Program-made: the position numbers and the translations under genes
Origin: an uncultured Verrucomicrobiae bacterium
Lineage (GTDB): Bacteria; Verrucomicrobiota; Verrucomicrobiia; Limisphaerales; Palsa-1400
Direction: 5' to 3'
Length of the DNA stretch: 64,000 nt
Assembly (NCBI GenBank): GCA_963707025.1
Contig: CAVPOM010000005.1
Coordinates: forward strand, 224,001 to 288,000
Shown here: one piece after another, positions 10,250 to 53,631 of the stretch
Position numbering within the stretch: position 1 is the first letter of the stretch
Layout: each line of letters begins with the position of its first letter
Notes under the pieces: model-generated
The model's input: the letters and a program-made list of their open reading frames with translations, nothing else
Told to the model about the DNA's origin: nothing
Database searches by the model: none

Positions 10250-10275
10250 TGGCGGGAGTAGCGGGGCTCGAACCC
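10250..10275 (-). repeat. Copy of tRNA-Asp 3' end (att-like site)
   Basis: tggcgggagtagcggggctcgaaccc matches 53555-53580 at 25/26. Confidence 0.85.
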
Positions 10276-38671: not shown

Positions 38672-41600
38672 TTAATGTTTGACTGACGAGACGGCGAGAG
38701 TCTCCGCCGCTGAATTGTTCCAACCGCCGCCCAGGGCCTTGATCAGTTGAACGGCGGCGATGAGGCGCTCGCCCGCAAGTTGGGCATTGCCGCGCTCGGC
38801 CTGCAGCGCGTCCCGGCTGGCGTCCACGACTTCAATATAGCTGACAATGCCCGACTGATAACGGTTAGTCGCGAGGCCAACCGCGCGGCGCGCGTTCATC
38901 ACCGCGCGCTGTTGGGCGGACGACTGATCCGCCAAATGACGAATGCCGGACAGGCTGTCCTCCACCTCGTTAAAGGCCACCAGCACTTGTTGCCGGTAAT
39001 TCGCCACCGACTCCTCGAAAACGGCCTGGGACCGATGGTAGTTCGCTTTGTTGCGGCCTCCGGCAAAAATCGGCAGGGAAAGACTTGGACCGATGGACCA
39101 GGTTCGGCTGTTCCAGTTGAACAAGGTGTCCACATCGGCGCTCAAGTAGCCGCCCGAACCAGTGAGCGTAAGCACGGGAAAAAACGCAGCTTTCGCCACA
39201 CCAATGCGGGCATTGGACGAGGCAAGCTGGCGTTCCGCCTGGGCGACATCCGGTCGTCGCTCCAGCAAATCGGAAGGCAGACCGGCGGGGATTTCAGGCG
39301 GTTGCGGGTTCCAGGCGCCCGCTGTTTCAGCAGCTACGTGAAACGAGGATGGATTACTGCCGGCCAAAATGGCGATGGCATTCTCCAATTCCGCGCGTTG
39401 TTGCGCGAGCGACGCGGCTTCAGCTTCCGTGGTGGCCAGTTCGGTTTCGGCGCGTGCAATGTCGAGATCGTTGCCGATGCCGCCGTTAAAACGGCTCTGC
39501 ACCAGCCCCACCTGCTCCTTGCGCAATTCAACGGTGCCGGTCACGGTGGCCAACTCGGCGTCGAGAGCGCGGAGCCTGAAATAATTCTGCGCAACGTCAG
39601 CCTGCAGGGTCAACAAAACGCTGCCGAATGCGGCGAGCGACGCTTGGGCATCGGCGCGGGCGCTTTCAAACCCGCGGCGCACACGGCCCCACAGATCAAT
39701 CTCGTAACTGAGGTCAAGCGGGGCCTGCCAAGTGTTCGCCGTCAAAGTGCCAAAGCTGGGTGATTGGTTCGGCGAGTAGCGCTGGCGGGCAAAGCTTGGA
39801 TCAAGACTCAAGCTCGGCAGCAAATCGCCCCTGGCCACGCGCGCCGTGGCACGGGCTTGATCCACCCGCGCAACGGCCGCTTTGAGGCTTTGGTTCGCGC
39901 GCATTGCCTGCAATTCCAAATCATTCAAATTGGTGTCGCCAAAGACCTCCCACCAATTGCCCTTCGGCACACCATCCAGCGGGCGGCCTTCCTTCCATTG
40001 CCCCAGTTTTGCGGCCTTATAGTTTTCGGGGACCGAGTTGGTCGGCGGCCGATAATCCGGGCCGATGGTCAGGCTTCCGGCTTGGGCGGAAGCGGGGGAA
40101 AACAACGCCGCGAGCAGAAGAATTCCCGCCACCGCACTTGGCGCGCCCAATGCGGGGCCGTTGGGTTCGTGACTGGCAATGACGGAAGGCTTCCGGGAAA
40201 CGCGCCTCATGAGGGTGAGATAGAAGACCGGTGTCAGAAACAGGCCGAACAACGTCACGCCGATCATCCCGGCAAAGACGGCCACGCCCATCGCCTGCCG
40301 CATCTCCGCGCCCGCGCCATGGGCCACCACTAGAGGGAAAACGCCCGCGATGAAGGCGATGGAGGTCATCAGAATGGGACGGAGACGAAGGCGGCTGGCC
40401 TCGACCGCCGCCTGGAACGCAGGAACACCTTCCTCATCCTGTTTGTGCCGGGCAAATTCGACAATGAGAATCGCGTTCTTGCAGGCCAGGCCGACCAGCA
40501 CGATCAGGCCGATTTGCGTGAAAATATTATTGTCACCGCCCTTGAGCCAGACGCCGCTGATGGCGAAGAGCAGGCACATCGGCACAATCAGGATGATGGC
40601 CAGTGGCAGACGCAAACTCTCGTATTGCGCCGCCAGGACCAGGAACACGAGCAGGATGCAGAGCGGATAAACATAAATGGCCGAATTGCCTGCCAGGATG
40701 CGCTGATAGGTCAAGTCCGTCCATTCGAAGGTCATCCCCTTGGCCAGACCGTCTCCCGCCAGCTTGGCGATCAACGCCTCCGCTTGGCCGGAACTGTAAC
40801 CGGCGGCGGGACCGCCATTGATTTCGGCGGCGGGATAGCCATTGTAACGCAGAGCGCGGTTGGGTCCGTGCGTTTCCGTCACCTTCACCAAGGCCCCCAA
40901 TGGCACCATCTGGCCTTTGTCGTTGCGCGTTTTCAGCCGCGTGATGTCCTCAGGGCGGTCGCGAAACTGCCCGTCGGCCTGGGCCACGACCTGATAAGTG
41001 CGCCCGAAACGATTGAAGTCATTAACATAAAGGGAACCGAGATAAATCTGCATGGTCTCGAACAAATTCTGGAGCTGCACGCCTTCCTGCTTGGCTTTGA
41101 TGCGGTCAATGTCCGCGTCCAGTTGGGGGACGTTGACGGTGAAGGTGGAAAACACGCTGGCCAGGCCGGGAGTCTGATAGCTTTTGCCAATAACGCCTTG
41201 AAGGCTCTGGTAGAGAGCGTCGTAGCCCAGGTCGGCGCGGTCTTCCACGTAGAGCTTGAATCCGCCGATGGTGCCCAAGCCATTCACGGGCGGCGGCGGC
41301 ACGGTCAGGACGAAAGCATCTTGAATGCCGGCGAACTGCTGATTTAATGTGGCAGCGATAGCCGGGCCACTGAGCTGGGACGACGTGCGTTCCTCAAACG
41401 GCTTCAAACAAAAAAAGACGATGCCTTCATTGGGTGACACGCTAAACCCGCTTATGCTCAACCCTGGGAAGGCGACGGCGCTTTCCACTCCGGGCTGCTT
41501 GAGCCCGATATCCGACATGCGGCGGATGACGGCTTCGGTGCGGTCGAGCGAAGCGGCGTCGGGCAATTGGGCGAAGGCCACCAGATATTGTTTGTCCTGC

Positions 41601-43321
41601 GTCGGCACAAAACCGGTGGGGACTTTGTTGAAACTCCAGCCGGTCAAAGCCACCAGGCCGCCATACACGACCAGCGCCACAACGCTCTTCCGCAGCACAC
41701 TGCCCACCCCGGCGGAGTATTTGTTCCCGGCCCACGCAAAAATCCGGTTGAATGGCCCGAAGAACCAGCCGAGTGATTTTTCCATGAATCGGGCGAACCA
41801 ATCTTTGGGCGCATGGTGGTCTTTGAGCAACACGGCGCAAAGGGCCGGAGAAAGCGTCAGCGAACTGAACGCTGAAATCACCGTCGAGATGGCGATCGTG
41901 ATGGCAAATTGTTTGTAAAACTGCCCCGTGAGGCCGCTGATGAAAGCCGTCGGCACGAAGACGGCGCAGAGCACCAGGGCGGTGGCAATAATCGGACTGG
42001 TCACTTCGCTCATGGCCCGTTTGGCCGCTTCCACCGGCGAGAGTCCCAGCGCGATGTTGCGCTCGACATTTTCGACCACAACGATGGCGTCGTCCACCAC
42101 GATGCCGATGGCCAGCACCAGGCCAAACAGGGACAAATTGTTGATGGAAAAGCCCAAGGCCAGCATCACGGCAAATGTGCCGATGAGGGAAACGGGCACG
42201 GCGACGAGGGGGATGATGGAGGCGCGCCACGTTTGCAGGAAAAGAATGACCACGATGACCACCAGCAAGATCGCCTCCAGCAAGGTATGCACCACCGCCT
42301 CGATGGAATGCCGCACGAATACCGTCGGATCATACACCACCGAGTAATCCACCCCGTCGGGAAAACTCTTCTTGAGTTGCTCCATGGTGCGGCGAACGTC
42401 CGCGGAGAGTTGGAGAGCGTTGGCGCCTGGGGTTTGAAAGATCGGCAGGGCCACGGCGGTCTTGTTGTTCAAGAGCGAACGCAGCGAGTAACTGTCCGCG
42501 CTCAATTCGATCCGGGCGATATCTTTGAGCAGGGTTTTCTCCCCCTCGAGTCCTGTCTTGACAATGATGCGCCCGAATTCCTCCGGGGAAACCAGCCGTC
42601 CCTTTGCGTTGATCTGCAACTCAAAATCCACGGGATTGGAAACCGGTTGCTGGCCAATCGCGCCTGCGGCGACTTGCACATTCTGTTCGCGGATGGCGCT
42701 GACCACGTCGCTGGCGGTCAGATTTCGCGCCGCGATCTTGTCTGGGTTGAGCCAGACGCGCATCGCATAATCACCCGAGCCGAAAACCTGGACGTCGCCC
42801 GCGCCTGGGATGCGCGCCAGCACATCCTTCACTTGGAGCGTGGCGTAATTGCGCAGATAAACGTCGTCATACCGGCCCGAAGGCGAGAACAAATGCACGA
42901 CCATCGTCAGGTCGGGGGATTGCTTGGTCGTCGTCACCCCTAGCTGGCGAACTTCTTCCGGCAGCTTGGCCAAGACCTGGGACACCCGGTTTTGCACCTG
43001 CACCTGGGCTTTGTCCACATCCGTGCCGAGCTTGAACGTCACCGTCAGCGTCAGCACCCCGTCGGGCGTCGCCTGGGAAAACATGTAAAGTGAATTCTCC
43101 ACGCCATTGACGGATTGTTCCAGCGGCGAGGCCACAGTTTCGGCAATGGTCTTGGGATTGGCGCCGGGATAAACCGCGCGCACCACGATGGTCGGGGGAA
43201 CCACCTCCGGGTATTCGCTGATGGGCAGGCGAAACATCGAGATCAGCCCGATAAGAAAGACCACTGCCGAGAGTACGCCCGCGAAGATCGGGCGGCGGAT
43301 GAAAAAGTGAGAGAAGTTCAT
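38672..43321 (-). CDS. HAE1-family RND efflux permease fused in frame to a TolC/NodT-family outer membrane factor
   Basis: FFIRRPIFA, GIVVDDAIVVVENVER, RLRPILMTS; then GPDY, YEIDLWGRVRR, LPSDLLERRPDV, LIKALGGGW; no internal stop. Confidence 0.9.
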   Translation of the reverse strand: MNFSHFFIRRPIFAGVLSAVVFLIGLISMFRLPISEYPEVVPPTIVVRAVYPGANPKTIAETVASPLEQSVNGVENSLYMFSQATPDGVLTLTVTFKLGTDVDKAQVQVQNRVSQVLAKLPEEVRQLGVTTTKQSPDLTMVVHLFSPSGRYDDVYLRNYATLQVKDVLARIPGAGDVQVFGSGDYAMRVWLNPDKIAARNLTASDVVSAIREQNVQVAAGAIGQQPVSNPVDFELQINAKGRLVSPEEFGRIIVKTGLEGEKTLLKDIARIELSADSYSLRSLLNNKTAVALPIFQTPGANALQLSADVRRTMEQLKKSFPDGVDYSVVYDPTVFVRHSIEAVVHTLLEAILLVVIVVILFLQTWRASIIPLVAVPVSLIGTFAVMLALGFSINNLSLFGLVLAIGIVVDDAIVVVENVERNIALGLSPVEAAKRAMSEVTSPIIATALVLCAVFVPTAFISGLTGQFYKQFAITIAISTVISAFSSLTLSPALCAVLLKDHHAPKDWFARFMEKSLGWFFGPFNRIFAWAGNKYSAGVGSVLRKSVVALVVYGGLVALTGWSFNKVPTGFVPTQDKQYLVAFAQLPDAASLDRTEAVIRRMSDIGLKQPGVESAVAFPGLSISGFSVSPNEGIVFFCLKPFEERTSSQLSGPAIAATLNQQFAGIQDAFVLTVPPPPVNGLGTIGGFKLYVEDRADLGYDALYQSLQGVIGKSYQTPGLASVFSTFTVNVPQLDADIDRIKAKQEGVQLQNLFETMQIYLGSLYVNDFNRFGRTYQVVAQADGQFRDRPEDITRLKTRNDKGQMVPLGALVKVTETHGPNRALRYNGYPAAEINGGPAAGYSSGQAEALIAKLAGDGLAKGMTFEWTDLTYQRILAGNSAIYVYPLCILLVFLVLAAQYESLRLPLAIILIVPMCLLFAISGVWLKGGDNNIFTQIGLIVLVGLACKNAILIVEFARHKQDEEGVPAFQAAVEASRLRLRPILMTSIAFIAGVFPLVVAHGAGAEMRQAMGVAVFAGMIGVTLFGLFLTPVFYLTLMRRVSRKPSVIASHEPNGPALGAPSAVAGILLLAALFSPASAQAGSLTIGPDYRPPTNSVPENYKAAKLGQWKEGRPLDGVPKGNWWEVFGDTNLNDLELQAMRANQSLKAAVARVDQARATARVARGDLLPSLSLDPSFARQRYSPNQSPSFGTLTANTWQAPLDLSYEIDLWGRVRRGFESARADAQASLAAFGSVLLTLQADVAQNYFRLRALDAELATVTGTVELRKEQVGLVQSRFNGGIGNDLDIARAETELATTEAEAASLAQQRAELENAIAILAGSNPSSFHVAAETAGAWNPQPPEIPAGLPSDLLERRPDVAQAERQLASSNARIGVAKAAFFPVLTLTGSGGYLSADVDTLFNWNSRTWSIGPSLSLPIFAGGRNKANYHRSQAVFEESVANYRQQVLVAFNEVEDSLSGIRHLADQSSAQQRAVMNARRAVGLATNRYQSGIVSYIEVVDASRDALQAERGNAQLAGERLIAAVQLIKALGGGWNNSAAETLAVSSVKH

Positions 43322-45608: not shown

Positions 45609-45784
45609 CTTTTTTCTGCAGAAATGTTGATTTTTTGGGCCAGAGTCTCGGAGGTAAGCCGTGACAGGTCTTTCTCGGCCGCCCGTTCAAGCAGGACGCG
45701 ATACATTGTTACCGGCGGTTGCGCTCGGCCAGGAATTCTTCCAGCGGGCGGCAATGCAGAGGCTTGCGGCGGGCGCGTTTGAAT

Positions 45785-45990
45785 TTGGGGGACTCAAGCT
45801 GCGCCTCATCCCGCGACAAGTCACGCCACAGGCTCTCCATCACCCGAAGTTTCTCGGCGATGGTCATTTTCTCCAATGGCAATGTAATTTCCATTTTCTT
45901 TTCGATACCGCTGAACCGTCTAAATCTCGCGTGTCCTGGGGATGACGTCAATAGCGGGCAGGCAATTCTCGCCATTGCCAACACGGCCAC
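45785..45990 (-). pseudogene. Truncated duplicate of the antitoxin gene and its upstream region (46717-46922)
   Basis: Near-identical MEITLPLEKMTIAEKLRVMESLWRDL...ESPK, then diverges; no toxin follows. Confidence 0.85.
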
Positions 45991-46054
45991 AACCCAGGGG
46001 GGCGAGTGATGTCGGCATGGCGAGACTCCGTTCGAGCCGAAACTCGATCTCCTG

Positions 46055-46132
46055 GGGGAAAGTCACGTTTTGACACTCCCTGTCACAATGGGTCACGCAA
46101 TGGAAAATGGCGGGAGTGGCGGGGCTCGAACC
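46055..46132 (+). repeat. 78-bp direct repeat of 53502-53579 containing the 25-bp att core (tRNA-Asp 3' end, 46108-46132)
   Basis: 74/78 identity; the core is a perfect 25-bp match. Confidence 0.95.
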
Positions 46133-46315
46133 TGCTACGAATCGTTGAATATCAAGGGTTTAGGTGGGGTGCCCTCACAAGGAGCCTCACAGAAGCCAGT
46201 CACACTGAGTCACGACCTGGCGCAAGTAGTCACGGCGTGGGATAAACTTTCCGCTCCGCTCAAGGCCGCAATCCTCGCCATTGTCGGCGCGGCGACAGTA
46301 AAGGAGGTTCAGTGA
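46133..46315 (+). other. Detached in-frame C-terminal tail of the integrase (joined only in the excised circle)
   Basis: Same frame as int across the att core; 60 aa ending DLAQVVTAWDKLSAPLKAAILAIVGAATVKEVQ. Confidence 0.7.
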
Positions 46316-46611
46316 CCAAGGCCCGCCAGCTTTTCCCGAATTGCCTGCGGATCACTCCGGCAGTCCAAGACAGCCCATACTCGGGCCGTCATGCCTTCTT
46401 GATCGTAATAGACGGCGTAGGGGAAACGCTCGGACAGCAGCCAATGGTAACCAAATTGCTTGGAATGAATTCCCGCGTAAAGGCGAAGCGATTCAATGTC
46501 CGAAAACAACGACTCCTGGAAATAATCTCCCAACCCTGCCTGCTGTCGTTCGTAAAAATCAAATCCGTTGGAGAGGTCATCCCGTGCCGACGGCAGAATA
46601 AGGATACTCAT
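46309..46611 (-). CDS. RelE/ParE family toxin
   Basis: SARDDL...FYERQQAGLG..F; RFPYAVYY; AVLDCR.DP; coupled to the antitoxin. Confidence 0.88.
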   Translation of the reverse strand: MSILILPSARDDLSNGFDFYERQQAGLGDYFQESLFSDIESLRLYAGIHSKQFGYHWLLSERFPYAVYYDQEGMTARVWAVLDCRSDPQAIREKLAGLGH

Positions 46612-46826
46612 TTCACCCGGTTGCGGAGTTGCGTTTTCGCTGTCTCCCAGTCCATGAAGGATTCCTTGCCCTGCTCCACTCGCGCGGCCCTCTCTCCGAG
46701 AACCTCGCCATGCCATTTGGGAGATTCAAGCTGCTCCTCATCCCGCGTCAAGTCGCGCCAGAGGCTCTCCATCACCCGAAGTTTCTCGGCGATGGTCATT
46801 TTCTCCAATGGCAATGTAATTTCCAT
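46608..46826 (-). CDS. Addiction-module antitoxin component
   Basis: EKL..MESLWRDL, SPKWHGEVL.ER, DWETAK; ATGA overlap with the toxin. Confidence 0.88.
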   Translation of the reverse strand: MEITLPLEKMTIAEKLRVMESLWRDLTRDEEQLESPKWHGEVLGERAARVEQGKESFMDWETAKTQLRNRVK

Positions 46827-46937
46827 TTTCTTTTCGATACCGCTGAACCGCCTAAATCTCGCGTGTCCTGGAGATGATGTCAATAGCGGGCAGGCAATTC
46901 TCGCCATTGCCAACACGGCCACGGACAAGGGGGGCCA

Positions 46938-47652
46938 GTGACACCGGAGCGGCACGGCAGCGAGATAAAGCGAGCAGAACCGGACAGCGAGCACCACTGC
47001 TCGCCGGTTCTGCGGCCGTACGCGGTGACAACTGGCGACAGCGAGAGGCGGCGGGGTGGTGCCCAGCGCCACCCGCCGCCTCCGCTGGGCTTGTCTAAAG
47101 CGCATATTTCGGCGCGACAACGAAAAGGAAGCGTGACCTGTTACCGTGGTGCCAGCCTGATTCAGGTGCGCCTCCGTGGGGATGTGGCGGCGGGAAACAC
47201 GAGCGGTTGCGGCCCGCGTGGTGAAATTGTCGAGTTCACCCCGGCTTCGCGTCGGCGGATGCTGGAACTGCTGGCGAAAGTGGAACAGGCGGCGGTGCCT
47301 CTCGCCTTCACCCTGACCTAAGCGTTACGTTGCGAAAAAGGAGGAAATGCCGGTGATGGAACAAAAGCCGGGCCGGTATTGGGGTGTGATTGGCCGGGAA
47401 CACCTGCCATTTGGGAAACGGGAAGATCGGGAAGTCACGGGAGACCAGGCGGTGAAACTGCGGAGGGCCATGCGGCGTTACCGTGTGGCGAACACCCCGC
47501 CGGAGAAGCGGAAATATCTGCGGAAGAGCCAACTGTGGTCGGAAGATTTTACGGCCAAGCTGTTTTGCAACGTCGAGTTCTGGATGGAACGTCTGCCGAA
47601 ATTGATCGGCCTTTATGAGAATACCGCAATTGTGATTCCGAATTCCGCATGA
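46938..47652 (+). pseudogene. Rolling-circle (HUH) replication initiator with internal deletion
   Basis: RGEIVEFTPASRRRMLELL...FTLT (motif I) abuts, out of frame, KRYVAK...GRYWG (motif III); HUH motif II is missing. Confidence 0.6.
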
Positions 47653-47760
47653 CCCTTTCACGGAGCCAAGAGAGAACCAGAATTCAAAAAGTGAGAACTG
47701 AGGCTTGCACATACCCACTGTTCCTTGACATCTGTGACTTTTGAGTGCAGGCTGGAAGCC

Positions 47761-48276
47761 ATGAGTGATTATACTTCTTTATGGCCGATTTTGGGCGGCG
47801 GTGCAGTCGGCTTTCTAAGCAGCTTAGGAACATCGCTGATTTCAGAAACGAGAAGGCGTGAGGCCGAGAGATTAAGCCTTACGGGAGCAATCGTTGGTGA
47901 AGTATCGGCGCTCATCGATATTTCCGAGCGCCGCAATTACATTGAGGGTCTTCGTGAATTGATAAGCCGAGCGAAAGCCAACAAGGATGCACCAGACAAA
48001 AGTGTCTGGTACCATTTCTCCGTGCGCCGCAATCCATTTCCGGTGTACGATGCTAATCTTACGCGCATCGGTATTCTTCGCGATCCGTTACCAAGGCATA
48101 TCGCTCGTTTCTATGCAATGTCTTCATCAATTCTTGAGGACATCGCCGATATGAGAGAGGGTAAGATGCAGCGCGGTCGCGATGAATCAATCCACTGCCT
48201 TGAGGAACTTCTTAAACTTTTTGAAGACACACTTGTTTTGGGGCGAAAAATCGTTTCGGACGGCCATAGTCCCTAA
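47761..48276 (+). CDS. Hypothetical protein with N-terminal TM helix
   Basis: 171-aa ORF, AT-richer than the host genes, own TTGACA promoter at 47725. Confidence 0.75.
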   Translation: MSDYTSLWPILGGGAVGFLSSLGTSLISETRRREAERLSLTGAIVGEVSALIDISERRNYIEGLRELISRAKANKDAPDKSVWYHFSVRRNPFPVYDANLTRIGILRDPLPRHIARFYAMSSSILEDIADMREGKMQRGRDESIHCLEELLKLFEDTLVLGRKIVSDGHSP

Positions 48277-48309
48277 AGTCTTCAAATAAATATACAAAAG
48301 CTGATTGAA

Positions 48310-48400
48310 GGAACATCGGGGTCATAGGGAACATCGGGGTCACATCTAAACATTCTACATTGGGGCGCGACGAAATGTAGAATGTTTAGATTTGACACCG
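48310..48400. repeat. Palindromic REP/MITE-like element
   Basis: 15-bp repeat ggaacatcggggtca present twice; 27-bp inverted arms 48335-48361 and 48374-48400 (25/27). Confidence 0.75.
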
Positions 48401-48745
48401 TTTCACTTTTGGCCTTGAAGGCGTTTCTGAATTTGTGCCGATAGTTGAGCGGCTTCTGCCAGTGCTCTCTTATATTTATTTTCAAGCCCAGAGCCGTCTT
48501 CTGATGGTGCCAGTCGTTGTAATTGTTCCATAAGTGCATCGCATTTCGATTTTGCTGTGGCAAGTGAAGCCCTCAGCGATGCCATATCATCCCCCCCCGT
48601 TAGACAAACAAGTGATTCACAGTGACGTGCCAATGTTCGCAGAATGTGATGGTAGGTCTCCAATCTTTGAGCTGGACCCCTATTTTTAGACCACAGGTAA
48701 GTTTCGATTTTTGCCGGTTTGCTGTAGATAAGAAAGAGCAGACTT

Positions 48746-49036
48746 ATGAAAGCAAAACGGAAAAGACACAGTGCGGCCTTCAAGGCCAAAGTGGGATTCG
48801 AAGCCCTGGTGGGGCTGAAGACGGTCGCGCAATTGGCGCGAGAGTATGCGGTGCATCCGGCGCAGGTCACGCAGTGGCGGGCGACGATTCGGGATCACAT
48901 GCCCGAATTGTTTGAGCCCGGGCAACCCCGCACGGAGGATCAGGAACAGTTGATTGCCCAACTGCATGAGAAGATTGGCCAACTGACGGTGGACTTGGAC
49001 TGGCTTAAAAAAAAGTCCAGGCAACTGGGGCTTTAA
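48746..49036 (+). CDS. IS3 transposase OrfA
   Basis: HSAAFKAKV HTH; ends with WLKKKS over the A8G slippery run. Confidence 0.92.
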   Translation: MKAKRKRHSAAFKAKVGFEALVGLKTVAQLAREYAVHPAQVTQWRATIRDHMPELFEPGQPRTEDQEQLIAQLHEKIGQLTVDLDWLKKKSRQLGL

Positions 49037-49923
49037 CATGTTTAATCGCTCCCGATCCGCAGCTCAGCGTGCGGCGCCAGTGCGAGCTGCTGGCGGTGTG
49101 CCGTGGCAGTTATTATTACCAGTGCTGTCCGGAGACAGAGGAGAACCTGGCGCTGATGCGGCGGTTGGACCAGATGCATTTGGACCACCCGGTTTATGGC
49201 AGCCGCAAACTGACCGTGCTGTTGCGCCGGGAGGGTTTGACCATCAATCGCAAACGGGTGGTGCGGCTGCTGCGGTTGATGGGGATCGAGGCGATTTACG
49301 CCAAGCCCAAGACGAGTCTGCGGGAGATGGGGCACCAGATTTATCCGTATCTGTTACGCAATTTGGCAGTGACGGGACCGGATCAGGTTTGGTGTTCGGA
49401 CATTACGTATGTGCCTATGGCAACTGGGTTTATGTATTTGGTGGCGGTGATGGATTGGTGGAGTCGTTACGTGCTGGGATGGCGCTTGAGCAACACGTTG
49501 GAGGCGGACTTTTGTGTGGACGCTTGGGAGGCGGCGTTGCGGGCGGGGCGTCAGGCGCCGTTGATTTCCAATACCGACCAGGGATCGCAGTTCACCTCCC
49601 CGATGTTTATCGATGCGGTGGAATCGGCGGGGGTGGACGTGAGCATGGACGGACGGGGTCGCTGGATGGACAACCGGTTTATCGAGCGGCTGTGGCGGAG
49701 CGCCAAGTATGAGGACATTTATTTGCAAGACTATGGCGACGGGTTGGCGGCAGGGCGCGGACTGGGCCGGTGGTTTGACGGCTACAACCGGGAACGACCG
49801 CACCAGGCGTTGGGCTATGCGACGCCGGCGGACGCGTATTTTGATCCCGGCACGCATGGAGCCCAACCGGCCAAATGGGAAGCGATGCAACCTGCCAGAG
49901 GCAGGAGCGATCGCAGCACTTGA
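49007..49923 (+). CDS. IS3 transposase OrfB (DDE), reached by programmed -1 frameshift
   Basis: -1 frame is open from the A8G run at 49007-49015; WCSDITY, TDQGSQFT, DNRFIERLWRSAKYE. Confidence 0.92.
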
Positions 49924-50614
49924 CAGAGAGGCAGGCGGCAGGAAAAGGCTTGAAATCAGACCGCCTGCGGCGGTAGAGTTGAGAACCCTAAGAAAACGGA
50001 GAGGGAGGACGGGCAGTGCTCCGCATCGCTCGTTCTCTCTTTCGAAAGGGTTTTGAAACACGGAATGAACAGTAGTCAACTACAATTAGTAATGACAGCA
50101 ATCGGCAAAAGTCGCGCTTATTTCATGCGCTCCGTGGTCTAAAGGATGGGGTCCACCTCACTTTTCGGGGTTACAAAAATAGCATCGCGTATCTGATTCT
50201 TGAGTGGTTCCGCAAAGAAGCGAAAGATGCGTCTTTTCGTCTCCTTGCAAAAGATAGAGAAGGGAAGATCGGCATCAATTATTCCGTCCTGAAAATACTT
50301 AAATGGGGTGTGTTTGGCGTTCTTTATTTTCTGTTCAAACCTCGACAACTCAGCCTGGGTCAGTTTGTTAAATGGTGGAGGTATTTCTAAAGCCTGTGGA
50401 GCAACGCATTGCAATACTCTGGACAAGGCAGTTGGACGCAACTTCAAATTGTGTCCCCTCCACCGCGTTTCAAAATATGCCAATTCTACAAAGCATCTAG
50501 CGGTGGTGGCCGCGCTCGCCTCATCCACCGGCAGACCTTCAAACAATTTATCGAAAGATTGTTCAACTTGGCTTTTGTCCATAATAATCCTGCTGGTGAA
50601 TCTTGCCTCGTGAG

Positions 50615-51043
50615 TTATTGAAAATGTATGGCTTCGCCTCTATACACTGCATCCTGTGACGGATTAGTAAAACCAAAGGCCCCGCTCTTCGCAGCAATAG
50701 CCATTCCTTCCTGCCCACCCACGACATCTCCTCGATAGAGGATTAGAGCGTCTGCCCCAAGGTCGGCTGCTCGATACAGGAAGGCTTTAATGAACGCTGC
50801 TTCTTCGCCCGCGTGCCCCTCGACCGTCATCAGCGCCAGAACATCATATTTGCCCTCGATTTCAGCTTGAGGCGTGCCGTAAGGGGTTTGACTTTGGATC
50901 AATTTCACAGTTCCGTAAGGCTTTTTCGGCAGTGGGTTTGCAAAGGTGAGAACCTTAGTCCGGTTATAGTGCGGTGTGGGTTCGGTACCACAACCGAGGA
51001 AAACCGATAGGACAGCCAAAAAAAGAAGGAATGTTTTTCTCAT
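50615..51043 (-). CDS. Putative lipoprotein
   Basis: MRKTFLLFLAVLSVFLGC lipobox; AADLGADALI motif. Confidence 0.75.
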   Translation of the reverse strand: MRKTFLLFLAVLSVFLGCGTEPTPHYNRTKVLTFANPLPKKPYGTVKLIQSQTPYGTPQAEIEGKYDVLALMTVEGHAGEEAAFIKAFLYRAADLGADALILYRGDVVGGQEGMAIAAKSGAFGFTNPSQDAVYRGEAIHFQ

Positions 51044-51440
51044 GGTTTCACTCTGGAATGCCCTATGGGCTTTGTCAATATCCATTGACACGACGCGCGA
51101 AGAAGTCGAGGTGATTGTGAAGTTCGTCGTCGCCTTGAAAGTGAAAGTGAAAGGGTCAAGCCCGGAATTCGGAATTATGGTTCGAGCAGATTGTCCGAGA
51201 AAAGCGACGAACCGGCACAAGCCCTCCCAGGTGGTGACGGCATTGCCGCCAGTGTTGCGAGGGCAGCCGGGGCTCAATCCTGGCAGCAATGACGGCACGA
51301 CCTAGCACTTGTCGGGGCTGGGTTTTCGCGTGTTGGCGTTCGGCTTGGCCCCCCTGCCTTGAGCAAGCCGAATGACGGCACGGGAAAACTCAGCGGGGAA
51401 ATCCCTTCCGGGTCTGTTTTGTCTCCCAAAAAGAAAGGCG

Positions 51441-51469
51441 TTGACATTACGAATACACTGTGTTAGGTT
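51441..51469 (+). promoter_or_regulatory. sigma70-type promoter, probably leaderless transcript
   Basis: TTGACA-N17-TAGGTT, with ATG 6 nt after the -10. Confidence 0.55.
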
Positions 51470-51475
51470 TGCATT

Positions 51476-52099
51476 ATGAATAAAGAGTTTCCGTATTTGA
51501 ATGTTCCGGCCAGCTTGAAACCGATTGTCGGTGTCCCTGATCCTGAGACGCGAATTTATCGGCGCGAAGGGAGCGATGAGGAGTCCGGCCCGTGGTTTGA
51601 TGCCCTTTGTGAGCATTTCCCCGGTGAGGGCTTTATTTCCCCCGGTGGCGTTGGGATGTACGCGCCCGTATCGCGGGCAGGGGTGTACAAAAGATTGAAA
51701 GAGGGCAACTTGACGGCGTTCTGTTTTCATGTCGTGAAGGCGGAGCGGTCGCTCTTCGGGTATCAAAAGAAGCTCAAAGAGCGCCCTTACGTTTATGTCG
51801 CGGTGAGCGAGTGCAAAGCCTGGGGCCAAGACCTGAGAGCGCGTCCAGATCGGAAAGAGGCGTATATCGAAGCTGCCGGGGGCGAGAAACCAGACGGGCA
51901 AGGTGAATTTCTGGACGAACCAAGAAAGGTCGCGGCGGCGGGAAAAATGAATCGAAAGGCTTTGAAGGAGATTGTCCGGGAAGTCTTCCAAGAAATGCTG
52001 GATGAGGATTTGCCGACATTTTCGCGGGCAAAAGCCCGGCGTGAGGTCGCGGCCAAAGCCAGGGCAAAACTGGACGGGAGGAACAAAAATGCAAAATGA
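51476..52099 (+). CDS. Putative DNA-binding protein of the element
   Basis: HTH-like VSRAGVYKRLKEGNL; first gene of the xis-int operon. Confidence 0.6.
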   Translation: MNKEFPYLNVPASLKPIVGVPDPETRIYRREGSDEESGPWFDALCEHFPGEGFISPGGVGMYAPVSRAGVYKRLKEGNLTAFCFHVVKAERSLFGYQKKLKERPYVYVAVSECKAWGQDLRARPDRKEAYIEAAGGEKPDGQGEFLDEPRKVAAAGKMNRKALKEIVREVFQEMLDEDLPTFSRAKARREVAAKARAKLDGRNKNAK

Positions 52100-52331
52100 A
52101 GTTGAAACGAAATCGGACCGGGTTATGAGATTGCCAGAGATTGCGGTGAGCCTGGGCGGTCTGCTTCGATTGAGGGTCGCTGCCGCGCGGCTGGGGGTAA
52201 GCGTTCGCACGGTTTACCGGATTATCGCGGAAGGCGGATTAAAGCTGGTGCATATCCGTGGATGCGCCTGCATCTCGGAAAACGAGTTGGTCAACTATAT
52301 TGAGCGAAACACACAAAGGAGAACGGCATGA
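52089..52331 (+). CDS. xis: Excisionase-like HTH protein
   Basis: AAARLGVSVRTVYRIIAEGGL; ATGA-coupled to int. Confidence 0.8.
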   Translation: MQNEVETKSDRVMRLPEIAVSLGGLLRLRVAAARLGVSVRTVYRIIAEGGLKLVHIRGCACISENELVNYIERNTQRRTA

Positions 52332-53612
52332 TTAACACCATTTTCAAACCCAGAGGTTCGCGGATATGGCGGTGGAAATTCCGGCAGTGCCCGGCAGACG
52401 GCAAAGTGCAAGACGTATCGCTCGGCACGTCTGACAAACAGGTGGCCGAAAAAATCAGGGGCGAGCGGTTGCGGGAAAAGGAGCATGAACGGGCCGGGTT
52501 TATCCCGCCAAAGGCCACAAGGGATGCGGCGCAACGCAATCTGGCGGACCATTTGCAAGACTTCCTGGGGGACATGCGGCGGCGCGGCAAGTCGGAAAAG
52601 TATCTGGCAAACCTTGAATTTCGGGTTGGCCAGGCTGACGGCGGATTGCGGCTGGAACACGGCAAAAGACGTGTCGGCGGATTCATTTCAAGCCTGGATG
52701 CGCGGGCGGCAGGAATTGAAGGACAAGACCGCAAACGACTATTTGGAAGCGGCACGGTGCTTTTTTAACTGGCTGGTGAAGCTCGGTCGCGTCGGTTCAA
52801 ACCCGCTGCTCTCGGTGGAAAAGGTGAAAACGAAGGGCGGCAAGGCGGATGAGGTTCGGGCATTCAGTGATGACGAAATGTTGCGACTGCTCGCGGTGGC
52901 TGGCGCTCGCAAGCCGGTTTATTTGATGGCGGTGCATACGGGTTTGCGGAGATCGGAACTGGCGGCGCTCAAGTGGGATGATTTGCACTTGGATGCGGTA
53001 ACACCCTTCGTCAAGGTTCGGGCGTCAACAACCAAGAATGGCAAACCGGCGGACATGCGTTTGCTGCCTGAACTGGCGGCGGCGCTCGGCGAATTCAAAA
53101 CCAGTGGGACGCCTGGCAATGCGCTTGTTTTTACCGGCATTCCACGGATTGAGAGGTTTTACAGGGATTTGAAGAAGGCCGGGATTCCGCCCCAGGATGC
53201 ACATGGACGCAAGGCGGTGTTTCATTCGCTGCGTCATACCTTCGGGACCAACTTGGCGCGGGGCGGGGTCGCCAGCCGTGTTGCAATGGCATTGATGCGG
53301 CACAGTGACCGGCGGCTGACCGATAAAATTTACACTGACGAAAACTTGCTCGGCACTTGGTCGGCATTCGACAGTCTGCCCAACTATGAAGAGCGAGCCT
53401 CACAAATAGCCTCACAGATTTTAGTCGCGGCGGGTCAGAACGTGTCACAGACTGTCGCAACGGGCGGCGGGTTGGACAGCAATAAAACCCTTGTGAACAA
53501 AGGGGAATGTCACGTTTTGACACTACCTGTCACAACGGGTCACGCAATGGAGAATGGCGGGAGTGGCGGGGCTCGAACCCGTAACCTCTGCCGTGACAGG
53601 GCAGCGCTCTAA
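52328..53612 (+). CDS. int: Tyrosine integrase (apparent +1 frameshift near 52632); frame runs through att into the antisense tRNA
   Basis: HTGLRRSEL, TKNG, FHSLRHTF, MRHSD, IY catalytic set; arm-binding N-terminus in ORF 52328. Confidence 0.92.
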
Positions 53613-53631
53613 CCAATTGAGCTACACCCCC
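53555..53631 (-). tRNA. trnD: tRNA-Asp (GTC)
   Basis: 77 nt; GGGGGTG/CACTCCC acceptor stem, anticodon loop ctGTCac, TTCGA, encoded CCA; TTGACG-N17-TAATTT promoter at 53646-53674. Confidence 0.97.

Follow-up and report, generated by a model that had tools for sequence, protein, structure and literature searches.

Recombination as a probable switch in a family of tRNA-targeting integrative elements with the attachment site inside the integrase gene

Why should the reading frame of an integrase run without a stop into its own attachment (att) site and continue, in the same phase, at the other end of the element? The question is raised by an element of 7447 bp, measured core to core, integrated at a tRNA-Asp gene within the 64,000 nt stretch of DNA from an uncultured Verrucomicrobiae bacterium analysed here (contig CAVPOM010000005.1, positions 224,001 to 288,000; hereafter the window). 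An earlier note on this DNA had proposed that integration exchanges a 60-residue C-terminus of the integrase for one of 10 residues and that this exchange is a recombination-encoded switch. Judged from sequence comparisons and structure predictions, the window element is one decayed representative of a large family of small integrative elements that target tRNA genes and occur in the Verrucomicrobiota and Planctomycetota, and the in-frame layout of integrase, core and tail is almost certainly real and family-wide. That this layout works as a functional switch on the integrase is probable, and the explanation favoured as a whole, that recombination is the switch and that the window holds a decayed member of a family with the att site of the circle (attP) inside the integrase gene (int), is on balance likely. 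The features concerned are:

53555..53631, minus strand: tRNA-Asp(gtc), the intact target, whose antisense strand gives the integrated integrase its end
53555..53579: att core on the tRNA side, identical to the 3′ 25 nt of tRNA-Asp
46108..46132: att core on the far side
52328..52631, plus strand: N-terminal part of the integrase; its start overlaps the stop of the excisionase gene, xis (ATGA), and the frame breaks near 52632
52632..53612, plus strand: core-binding and catalytic part of the integrase (PF00589), with a 74-codon linker, the core and the 10-residue tRNA-antisense end
53398..53416, plus strand: arm-like pair within the integrase linker, CCTCACA twice (copies at 53398 and 53410) with a 12-bp period; putative arm site
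46133..46315, plus strand: stranded integrase tail of 60 codons in the same phase as the far core, ending KEVQ* at 46315
46150..46162, plus strand: exact match, within the tail linker, to the IHF consensus
46173..46191, plus strand: arm-like CCTCACA pair (copies at 46173 and 46185) within the tail linker, in the same reading frame as the pair at 53398
46214..46288, plus strand: conserved two-helix hairpin in the tail, DLAQVVTAW...LKAAILAIVG
46302..46315, plus strand: Shine-Dalgarno-like AGGAGG and a GTG start that overlaps the tail stop (GTGA)

The two cores are identical at 25 of 25 bp. From the catalytic Tyr codon at 53331 the integrase frame has no stop up to the core, 74 codons away, and beyond it reads 10 tRNA-antisense codons, RNLCRDRAAL*; 60 open codons follow the far core in the same frame, and CCTCACA pairs lie in both halves of the coding sequence, all as the earlier note had read them. 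The catalytic positions (R in the region of 52938, K in the region of 53028, HxxR at 53223, H in the region of 53295 and Y at 53331) lie 5′ of the core, so that the core is downstream of the catalytic Tyr, and a PF00589 domain with R-K-H-R-H-Y residues, together with the three-domain fold modelled for the relative P0197, marks a lambda-like tyrosine integrase.

A single open frame could be fortuitous, and it would have to be regarded as such if homologous elements had stop codons before att or no frame conservation across it. The survey of relatives covered the best 80 of 340 genome loci, 12 viral loci, 6 of 12 further regions and four elements from the genome of the window, and element ends were located, with no use of the tail, as sequence repeated in the integrase 3′ region and in upstream DNA; L042, with cores blurred by insertions, was left out. 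A single integrase gave no match in the viral contigs searched, and the 12 distant viral loci were obtained with an integrase alignment. Thirty elements of this first set have both ends. In 28 of them the integrase frame reads on without a stop from the catalytic domain past the core (2 and 3 for the other frames), and 29 are open for 150 nt past the far core in that frame (others, 2 and 1). Metagenome loci, the best 80 of 557, added 12 elements, with three duplicates (L125, L158, L159) and a blurred tandem (L131) dropped, for a total of 42. When the ends are joined in silico, catalytic domain, core and hairpin form one frame in 40 of these 42 circles, which bears out the prediction that circularisation rebuilds a longer integrase; the two exceptions, L032 and L104, are broken before att. 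Of 103 dereplicated loci with an integrase and a tRNA gene, 97 read on in the integrase frame from the catalytic domain into the tRNA without a stop, as compared with 5 and 13 in the other frames.

Searches were also started from the tail, with profile matches in 25 of 121 genomes of the phylum of a Phycisphaeraceae locus and in 15 of 201 genomes of the phylum of the window. Twenty of the 62 matches were sampled, picked for long contigs; 14 of them have a second core within 20 kb and six have none in that range. The integrase is gone from two of the 14, and all 12 integrases that end at the second core share the frame of the tail, 11 with 405 to 544 open codons and one with 115. The left junction of the window is a complicated tandem relic, which could suggest that the in-frame tail is a product of chance or of assembly, but the counts of 40/42, 97/103 and 12/12, from tests that are overlapping or separate and in which the other frames are mostly closed, together with the codon-position pattern of selection given below, refute that explanation and leave it a negligible probability. 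The frame is conserved across att.

The targets, over all sets, are genes for tRNA Asp, Pro, Gly, Ser, Met, Arg, Lys, Val, Leu, Tyr and Ala, with sense-oriented Ser and Cys targets in addition. On a tree, the frame is kept across several target switches and in all three core phases, and also at the sense-oriented targets. Record titles assign the relatives mostly to Verrucomicrobiota and some to Planctomycetota. The genome of the window has three more elements (at tRNA-Pro, at tRNA-Gly and at a contig end), each with its tail in frame, and seven copies of the tail, several without an integrase. Over 37 elements the median long end has 60 residues and the median short end 10; the tRNA sets the short ends, which range in length from 0 to 61 residues, and the long ends have a polar character. 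In 10 of 220 stored proteins a single chain contains both the catalytic motifs and the tail, at full length in three cases; these are the natural long forms that the earlier note had thought worth seeking. The tail profile has 8,551 matches (E values up to 0.001) among 1.84 billion cluster representatives. The 150 best of them are without exception short (43-195 aa), which would be expected if stranded tails are called as hypothetical genes. In L070 (5868-6383) and in P0014, integrase and tail are fused and the core region has been lost or shortened by deletion between same-frame arm-like repeats. The tail of L253 (G046:C1) is in frame with a 416-codon gene, missed by the integrase profile, that is probably of another tyrosine-recombinase subfamily, and therefore the tail module may move between integrases.

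Which parts of this long frame are maintained as protein can be judged from 14 pairs, for which the ratio of nonsynonymous to synonymous change (dN/dS), a rough value here as synonymous divergence is high, is 0.11 in the catalytic part, 0.79 in the linker before the core, 0.74 in the linker after it and 0.24 (0.18-0.32) in the 26-residue hairpin. The differences at the three codon positions number 99, 60 and 175. By these values the linkers are near neutral as protein sequence, and selection at the protein level is confined to the last 26 residues; the purifying selection that had been suggested as a test of the tail is thus present, in the hairpin. The linkers carry DNA signals, with paired arm-like repeats on both sides of the core, nearly always in the same frame, and an exact IHF-like site in 8 of 37 elements, compared with 0.23 in shuffles (three near-duplicate rows dropped).

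The AlphaFold model of a natural long form, P0197, is a lambda-like integrase (Z 15.5 to lambda Int, root-mean-square deviation (rmsd) 3.7 over 247 residues) in which residues 384-475 are disordered (predicted local distance difference test score, pLDDT, <50) and 478-510 form the hairpin (pLDDT >90). The window tail alone is predicted to fold as two helices, and a Trp and a Leu in the hairpin are near-invariant. A Shine-Dalgarno motif together with an in-frame start is present in only two of 37 tails; an independent start was therefore rejected, and without a usable start of its own the tail would be produced solely as a fusion. Among the best compact structural matches of the hairpin, all below significance, are small dimerisation hairpins of regulators, such as TP901-1 CI (Z 3.5, rmsd 2.6 over 34 residues) and CapH (Z 3.0). 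By this comparison the hairpin might be a bait or degradation signal for a repressor, Xis, Rep or a host protease, with the switch acting on stability or transcription instead of on recombination. We regard this as very improbable, since the hairpin stays constant across elements whose upstream regulators come from several unrelated families, and the tail ends are polar and not tag-like. A degradation tag shared by the integrase ends was also considered and rejected; none is visible, as the short ends follow from the tRNA sequence and differ between elements and the long ends are polar. Phage and plasmid records gave only chance-level matches to the tail (E 0.3 to 9), and the Atlas solely unnamed clusters, with recognition values below the reliable range.

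By sequence, the gene as joined in the circle encodes the catalytic domain, a linker of ~90 residues specified by the attP DNA (arm pairs, IHF-like site and core) and the hairpin. Integration leaves the catalytic domain intact, replaces the tail with a tRNA-antisense stub and strands the tail, with no start codon, at the far end. From this arrangement we infer that recombination itself is the switch. The hairpin would be an interaction module, most likely for self-association, and would make the integrase of the circle the integration-competent form, as has been measured for Mx8.

That Myxococcus phage had been put forward as a precedent for attP within int, and both the literature and the order of the Mx8 protein support this. 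Mx8 targets tRNA-Asp, and Mx9 is similar to it. As described in passages of reviews, attP of Mx8 lies inside int, integration swaps a 112-residue end for one of 13 and the modified enzyme is less active (PMC4701971, PMC6070905), and a passage in PMC4383910 allows for such overlaps of att and int. The Mx8 protein has the same order, with a catalytic Tyr, a linker, a core read from the tRNA antisense strand and a long tail; in both, the att core lies within the int frame 3′ of the Tyr, and a long C-terminus gives way to a short, tRNA-derived one (60 versus 10 residues here). Two family members, however, have no significant BLASTP match to Mx8 (best E values 0.04 and 0.004, over short stretches), the tail profile does not match it (probability 0.3%), and the family elements measure 2.5-10 kb, integrate at many different tRNAs, have rep behind the tail and show no conserved virion genes among their shared reading frames. 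By these comparisons the family resembles Mx8 in layout and is not an Mx8 homologue; what is new beyond the precedent is the junction of tail and rep.

The tail could instead be a normal part of the integrase that integration merely cuts off, with the short form crippled or neutral ("suicidal") and excision dependent on the long form of another copy. The free variation of the short ends and the many decayed copies, among them the broken window copy and the tails that have lost their integrase, are what would then be expected. We think this unlikely, as the catalytic domain is whole, ends 74 codons before the core and is under strong selection (dN/dS 0.11), which may or may not act in the integrated state, and as xis still stands 5′ of the integrase in at least 27 of the 42 elements.

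The switch favoured above may extend to replication. The genes of the window element concerned are:

46309..46826, minus strand: addiction-module antitoxin (PF09720) and partner gene, cargo inserted between tail and rep
46894..46941, plus strand: second copy of the last 16 codons of the tail with the GTGA overlap, now 5′ of rep
46938..47652, plus strand: rep remnant; in intact relatives a HUH rolling-circle initiator of family PF23343
46970..47100, plus strand: putative double-strand origin, with two strong hairpins (z -7.3) and CTTGTCTA near 47090
51476..52099, plus strand: probable regulator of 207 aa, present in 11 of 42 elements; its stop overlaps the xis start
52089..52331, plus strand: excisionase-like HTH_17 gene, xis

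A Rep of the PF23343 HUH family is encoded in 30 of the 42 elements, and in intact relatives 11 of 12 proteins match PF23343, 8 of them above the curated cut-off, with HUH and Tyr motifs present. In 21 of the 29 elements scored, the distance from the tail stop to the start of the rep frame is between -11 and +20 nt. Thirty-two of 40 elements have a start that overlaps the tail stop, and a Shine-Dalgarno-like motif precedes that start in 33 of 40, versus backgrounds of 43% and 16% of long frames in the genome that include non-coding frames. The motif CTTGTCT(A/C), present beside strong hairpins in 22 of 30 rep 5′ regions and read in different frames by two Rep subfamilies, is with these hairpins the likely origin. 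The end of the tail is repeated 5′ of rep in three elements (window 46309-46941, C13 of G000, and L127), where junction cargo is flanked by a second tail-end copy that includes the Shine-Dalgarno motif and GTGA overlap; cargo seems to be captured preferentially at the tail/rep junction, with the start signals of rep preserved.

The stops and starts of the right-end genes (the 207-aa gene, xis and int) overlap throughout, and the order in the circle would be regulator, xis, long int, rep. Since the tail stop abuts the rep start, excision would join rep to the regulator-xis-int genes and so build a xis-int-rep operon, and the nicking initiator would then be made mainly in the circle and not while chromosomal. 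For this coupling as a real control, which the gene geometry suggests, we consider the case evenly balanced. A more tentative proposal, which we would put somewhat below that, is that, in a widespread and so far uncatalogued family of elements of the PVC group, one recombination throws two switches, by tethering a helical hairpin of no known family to the integrase and by having the stop of this hairpin hand ribosomes to Rep, so that full-length integrase and Rep would be circle-only products of a module portable among divergent integrases and more than 10 tRNA targets. If the coupling holds, it would explain how an element that replicates by rolling circle keeps from nicking the chromosome while integrated.

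The linkers, near neutral as protein and yet in frame, and the strong enrichment of start-stop overlaps and Shine-Dalgarno motifs would also be accounted for if the open frame served mainly to carry ribosomes over attP to the rep start, with the hairpin as a protective folded cap. This is quite improbable, as the hairpin is kept where this Rep is lacking (the primase-type element L114 and most loci of the tail-first search), its Trp and Leu are near-invariant, and rep has a Shine-Dalgarno-like motif of its own and may therefore need the transcript only. A subgroup at tRNA-Asp (L040, L064, L147 and L157) has no Rep match; the gene that begins at the tail stop there encodes a small, predicted membrane protein and is followed by the conserved gene set of the subgroup.

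With regard to the type of element, no conserved virion or transfer gene cluster was found among open reading frames common to at least 3 of the 42 elements, cargo frames having been scanned only in part against family libraries. The description as a non-phage rolling-circle element probably holds for the family, whose members are small and mostly encode Rep, with no conserved virion or conjugation gene among these shared frames; in the window copy Rep is broken. The pSAM2-type elements of actinomycetes combine a tRNA-targeting tyrosine integrase, xis and a rolling-circle Rep. The family differs from them in having no conserved FtsK-type transfer gene among the 42 elements and in that, when integrated, rep is at the opposite end from xis and int.

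In the archaeal SSV-type ("suicidal") integrases the split lies before the catalytic part. The parts of PMC5861418 and PMC8371274 that deal with the SSV1, pTN3 and pT26-2 integrases describe att inside int and a gene that is split upon integration into a tRNA gene. In contrast, att does not divide int into an N-terminal and a catalytic C-terminal part here: the family keeps the whole catalytic domain, with a tetrad of the bacterial R-H-R-Y type, on the tRNA side with the promoter-proximal genes, and only the distal hairpin is lost. Circularisation of the haloarchaeal pleolipovirus SNJ2, according to passages of PMC13107129, brings the integrase region and the rolling-circle replication genes together in a new operon, which is required for replication, and creates an open reading frame across attP. 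A replication operon built by circularisation would be the shared feature, as gene geometry suggests for the family; SNJ2 is an archaeal virus with a Rep of another family, and its attP frame is a separate gene downstream of int. In the family it is the integrase frame that spans attP, and rep starts where that frame stops. No description of the family or of rep coupling to an integrase tail was found in the literature searched, in which subscription journals are thinly covered. Passages in two accounts call attP inside int rare in bacteria ("very few integrative elements", PMC4701971) or exclusive to archaea (PMC8371274); in the large bacterial family described here it is the rule. The hairpin could serve as a simple marker of the far end of such islands, to be annotated as the end of a split gene.

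Several observations, in the window copy, in the family and in the searches, weigh against a recombination switch of this kind. The window integrase is frameshifted near 52632, with one extra base relative to four relatives, and two contigs of relatives from a public sequencing run lose alignment at 52631; an assembly error at 52632 instead of a true frameshift is possible. The window rep is about 500 nt shorter than that of L029, its HUH and Tyr motifs lost by a deletion near 47320, so that the intact HUH initiator of a rolling-circle element is missing. With the frameshift, the rep deletion and the insertion sequence, the window copy is, by its sequence, decayed, and its frameshifted gene would make neither integrase form intact. 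A promoter scan of the element found 6 sites versus 4.3 expected and none 5′ of the regulator gene, where TTGACA at 51441, with a poor second hexamer, is a mere hint.

In the family, the relatives are kin and not independent samples. Twelve of the 42 elements have no Rep match, as do all but 3 of the 20 tail-first loci, and the junction of tail and rep is not direct in 8 of the 29 elements scored (L057 has a GTG at -5, and cargo intervenes in the other seven). The natural long forms may come from tandem arrays rather than from circles; L114 lies within a 7.3-kb duplication. In L194, integrase, core, tail and rep are consecutive and out of frame; as its integrase uses the rarer phase at tRNA-Asp, two different elements may have become joined at this locus. 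A tandem junction in the chromosome would yield a long integrase coupled to rep of the next element, but each of the five such junctions examined (L029, L042, L070, L194 and window 46055-46132) is broken somehow, which, in a small and unplanned sample, fits selection against a chromosomal long form. No family in Pfam, PHROGs or NCBIfam matches the tail sequence of the window element, its best E value among solved sequences is 0.6, and a fold search of 48,161 chains with the tail alone gave none with Z >=5 (top Z 4.4), an outcome uninformative either way; with no family, solved relative or fold match, self-association of the hairpin is a guess. None of the public sequencing runs has even half of the words of the element, and no circle junction, for which read mapping had been suggested, was seen among the matches listed of contigs aligned to the element, these contigs being from relatives. 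Joints between arm repeats in the aligned contigs, considered as possible circles, were rejected as mapping to the similar arm.

The left end of the window element adjoins further remnants:

45637..46107, plus strand: tandem relic of an older sibling element
10250..10274: third copy of the core, with 1 mismatch, which probably marks the outer boundary of an older island of 36 kb at the same tRNA

The relic consists of a 227-bp copy of the antitoxin and the tail end (45783-46009) and of 53 bp of the integrase 3′ end of the sibling (46055-46107), outside the left core. Because it adjoins this core, the direct repeat of the element extends to 78 bp at 95% identity (46055-46132 versus 53502-53579). 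A short repeat resembling repetitive extragenic palindromes, with many similar copies in the genome, lies at the deletion point of the relic (46013-46067). The 36 kb from 10250 to 46107 may be an older island at the same tRNA-Asp; no tail motif follows the third core at 10250.

From left to right, the window element has a core, the tail, toxin-antitoxin cargo, the rep remnant, cargo with an IS3-type insertion, the 207-aa gene, xis, int and the core in tRNA-Asp. The partner of the PF09720 antitoxin has no family match and is presumably ParE/RelE-like. Upstream of the regulator gene, a long inverted repeat (51317-51394) is kept in relatives and is possibly a single-strand origin or a terminator. 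The insertion is:

48668..50160, plus strand: IS3-type insertion sequence with many near-identical copies in the genome

The 36-kb region holds glycoside-hydrolase-like genes, a sigma-factor cluster and an RND efflux system with a TetR regulator. A single frame of 1549 aa (38672-43321) combines an RND permease with an outer-membrane-factor-like domain.

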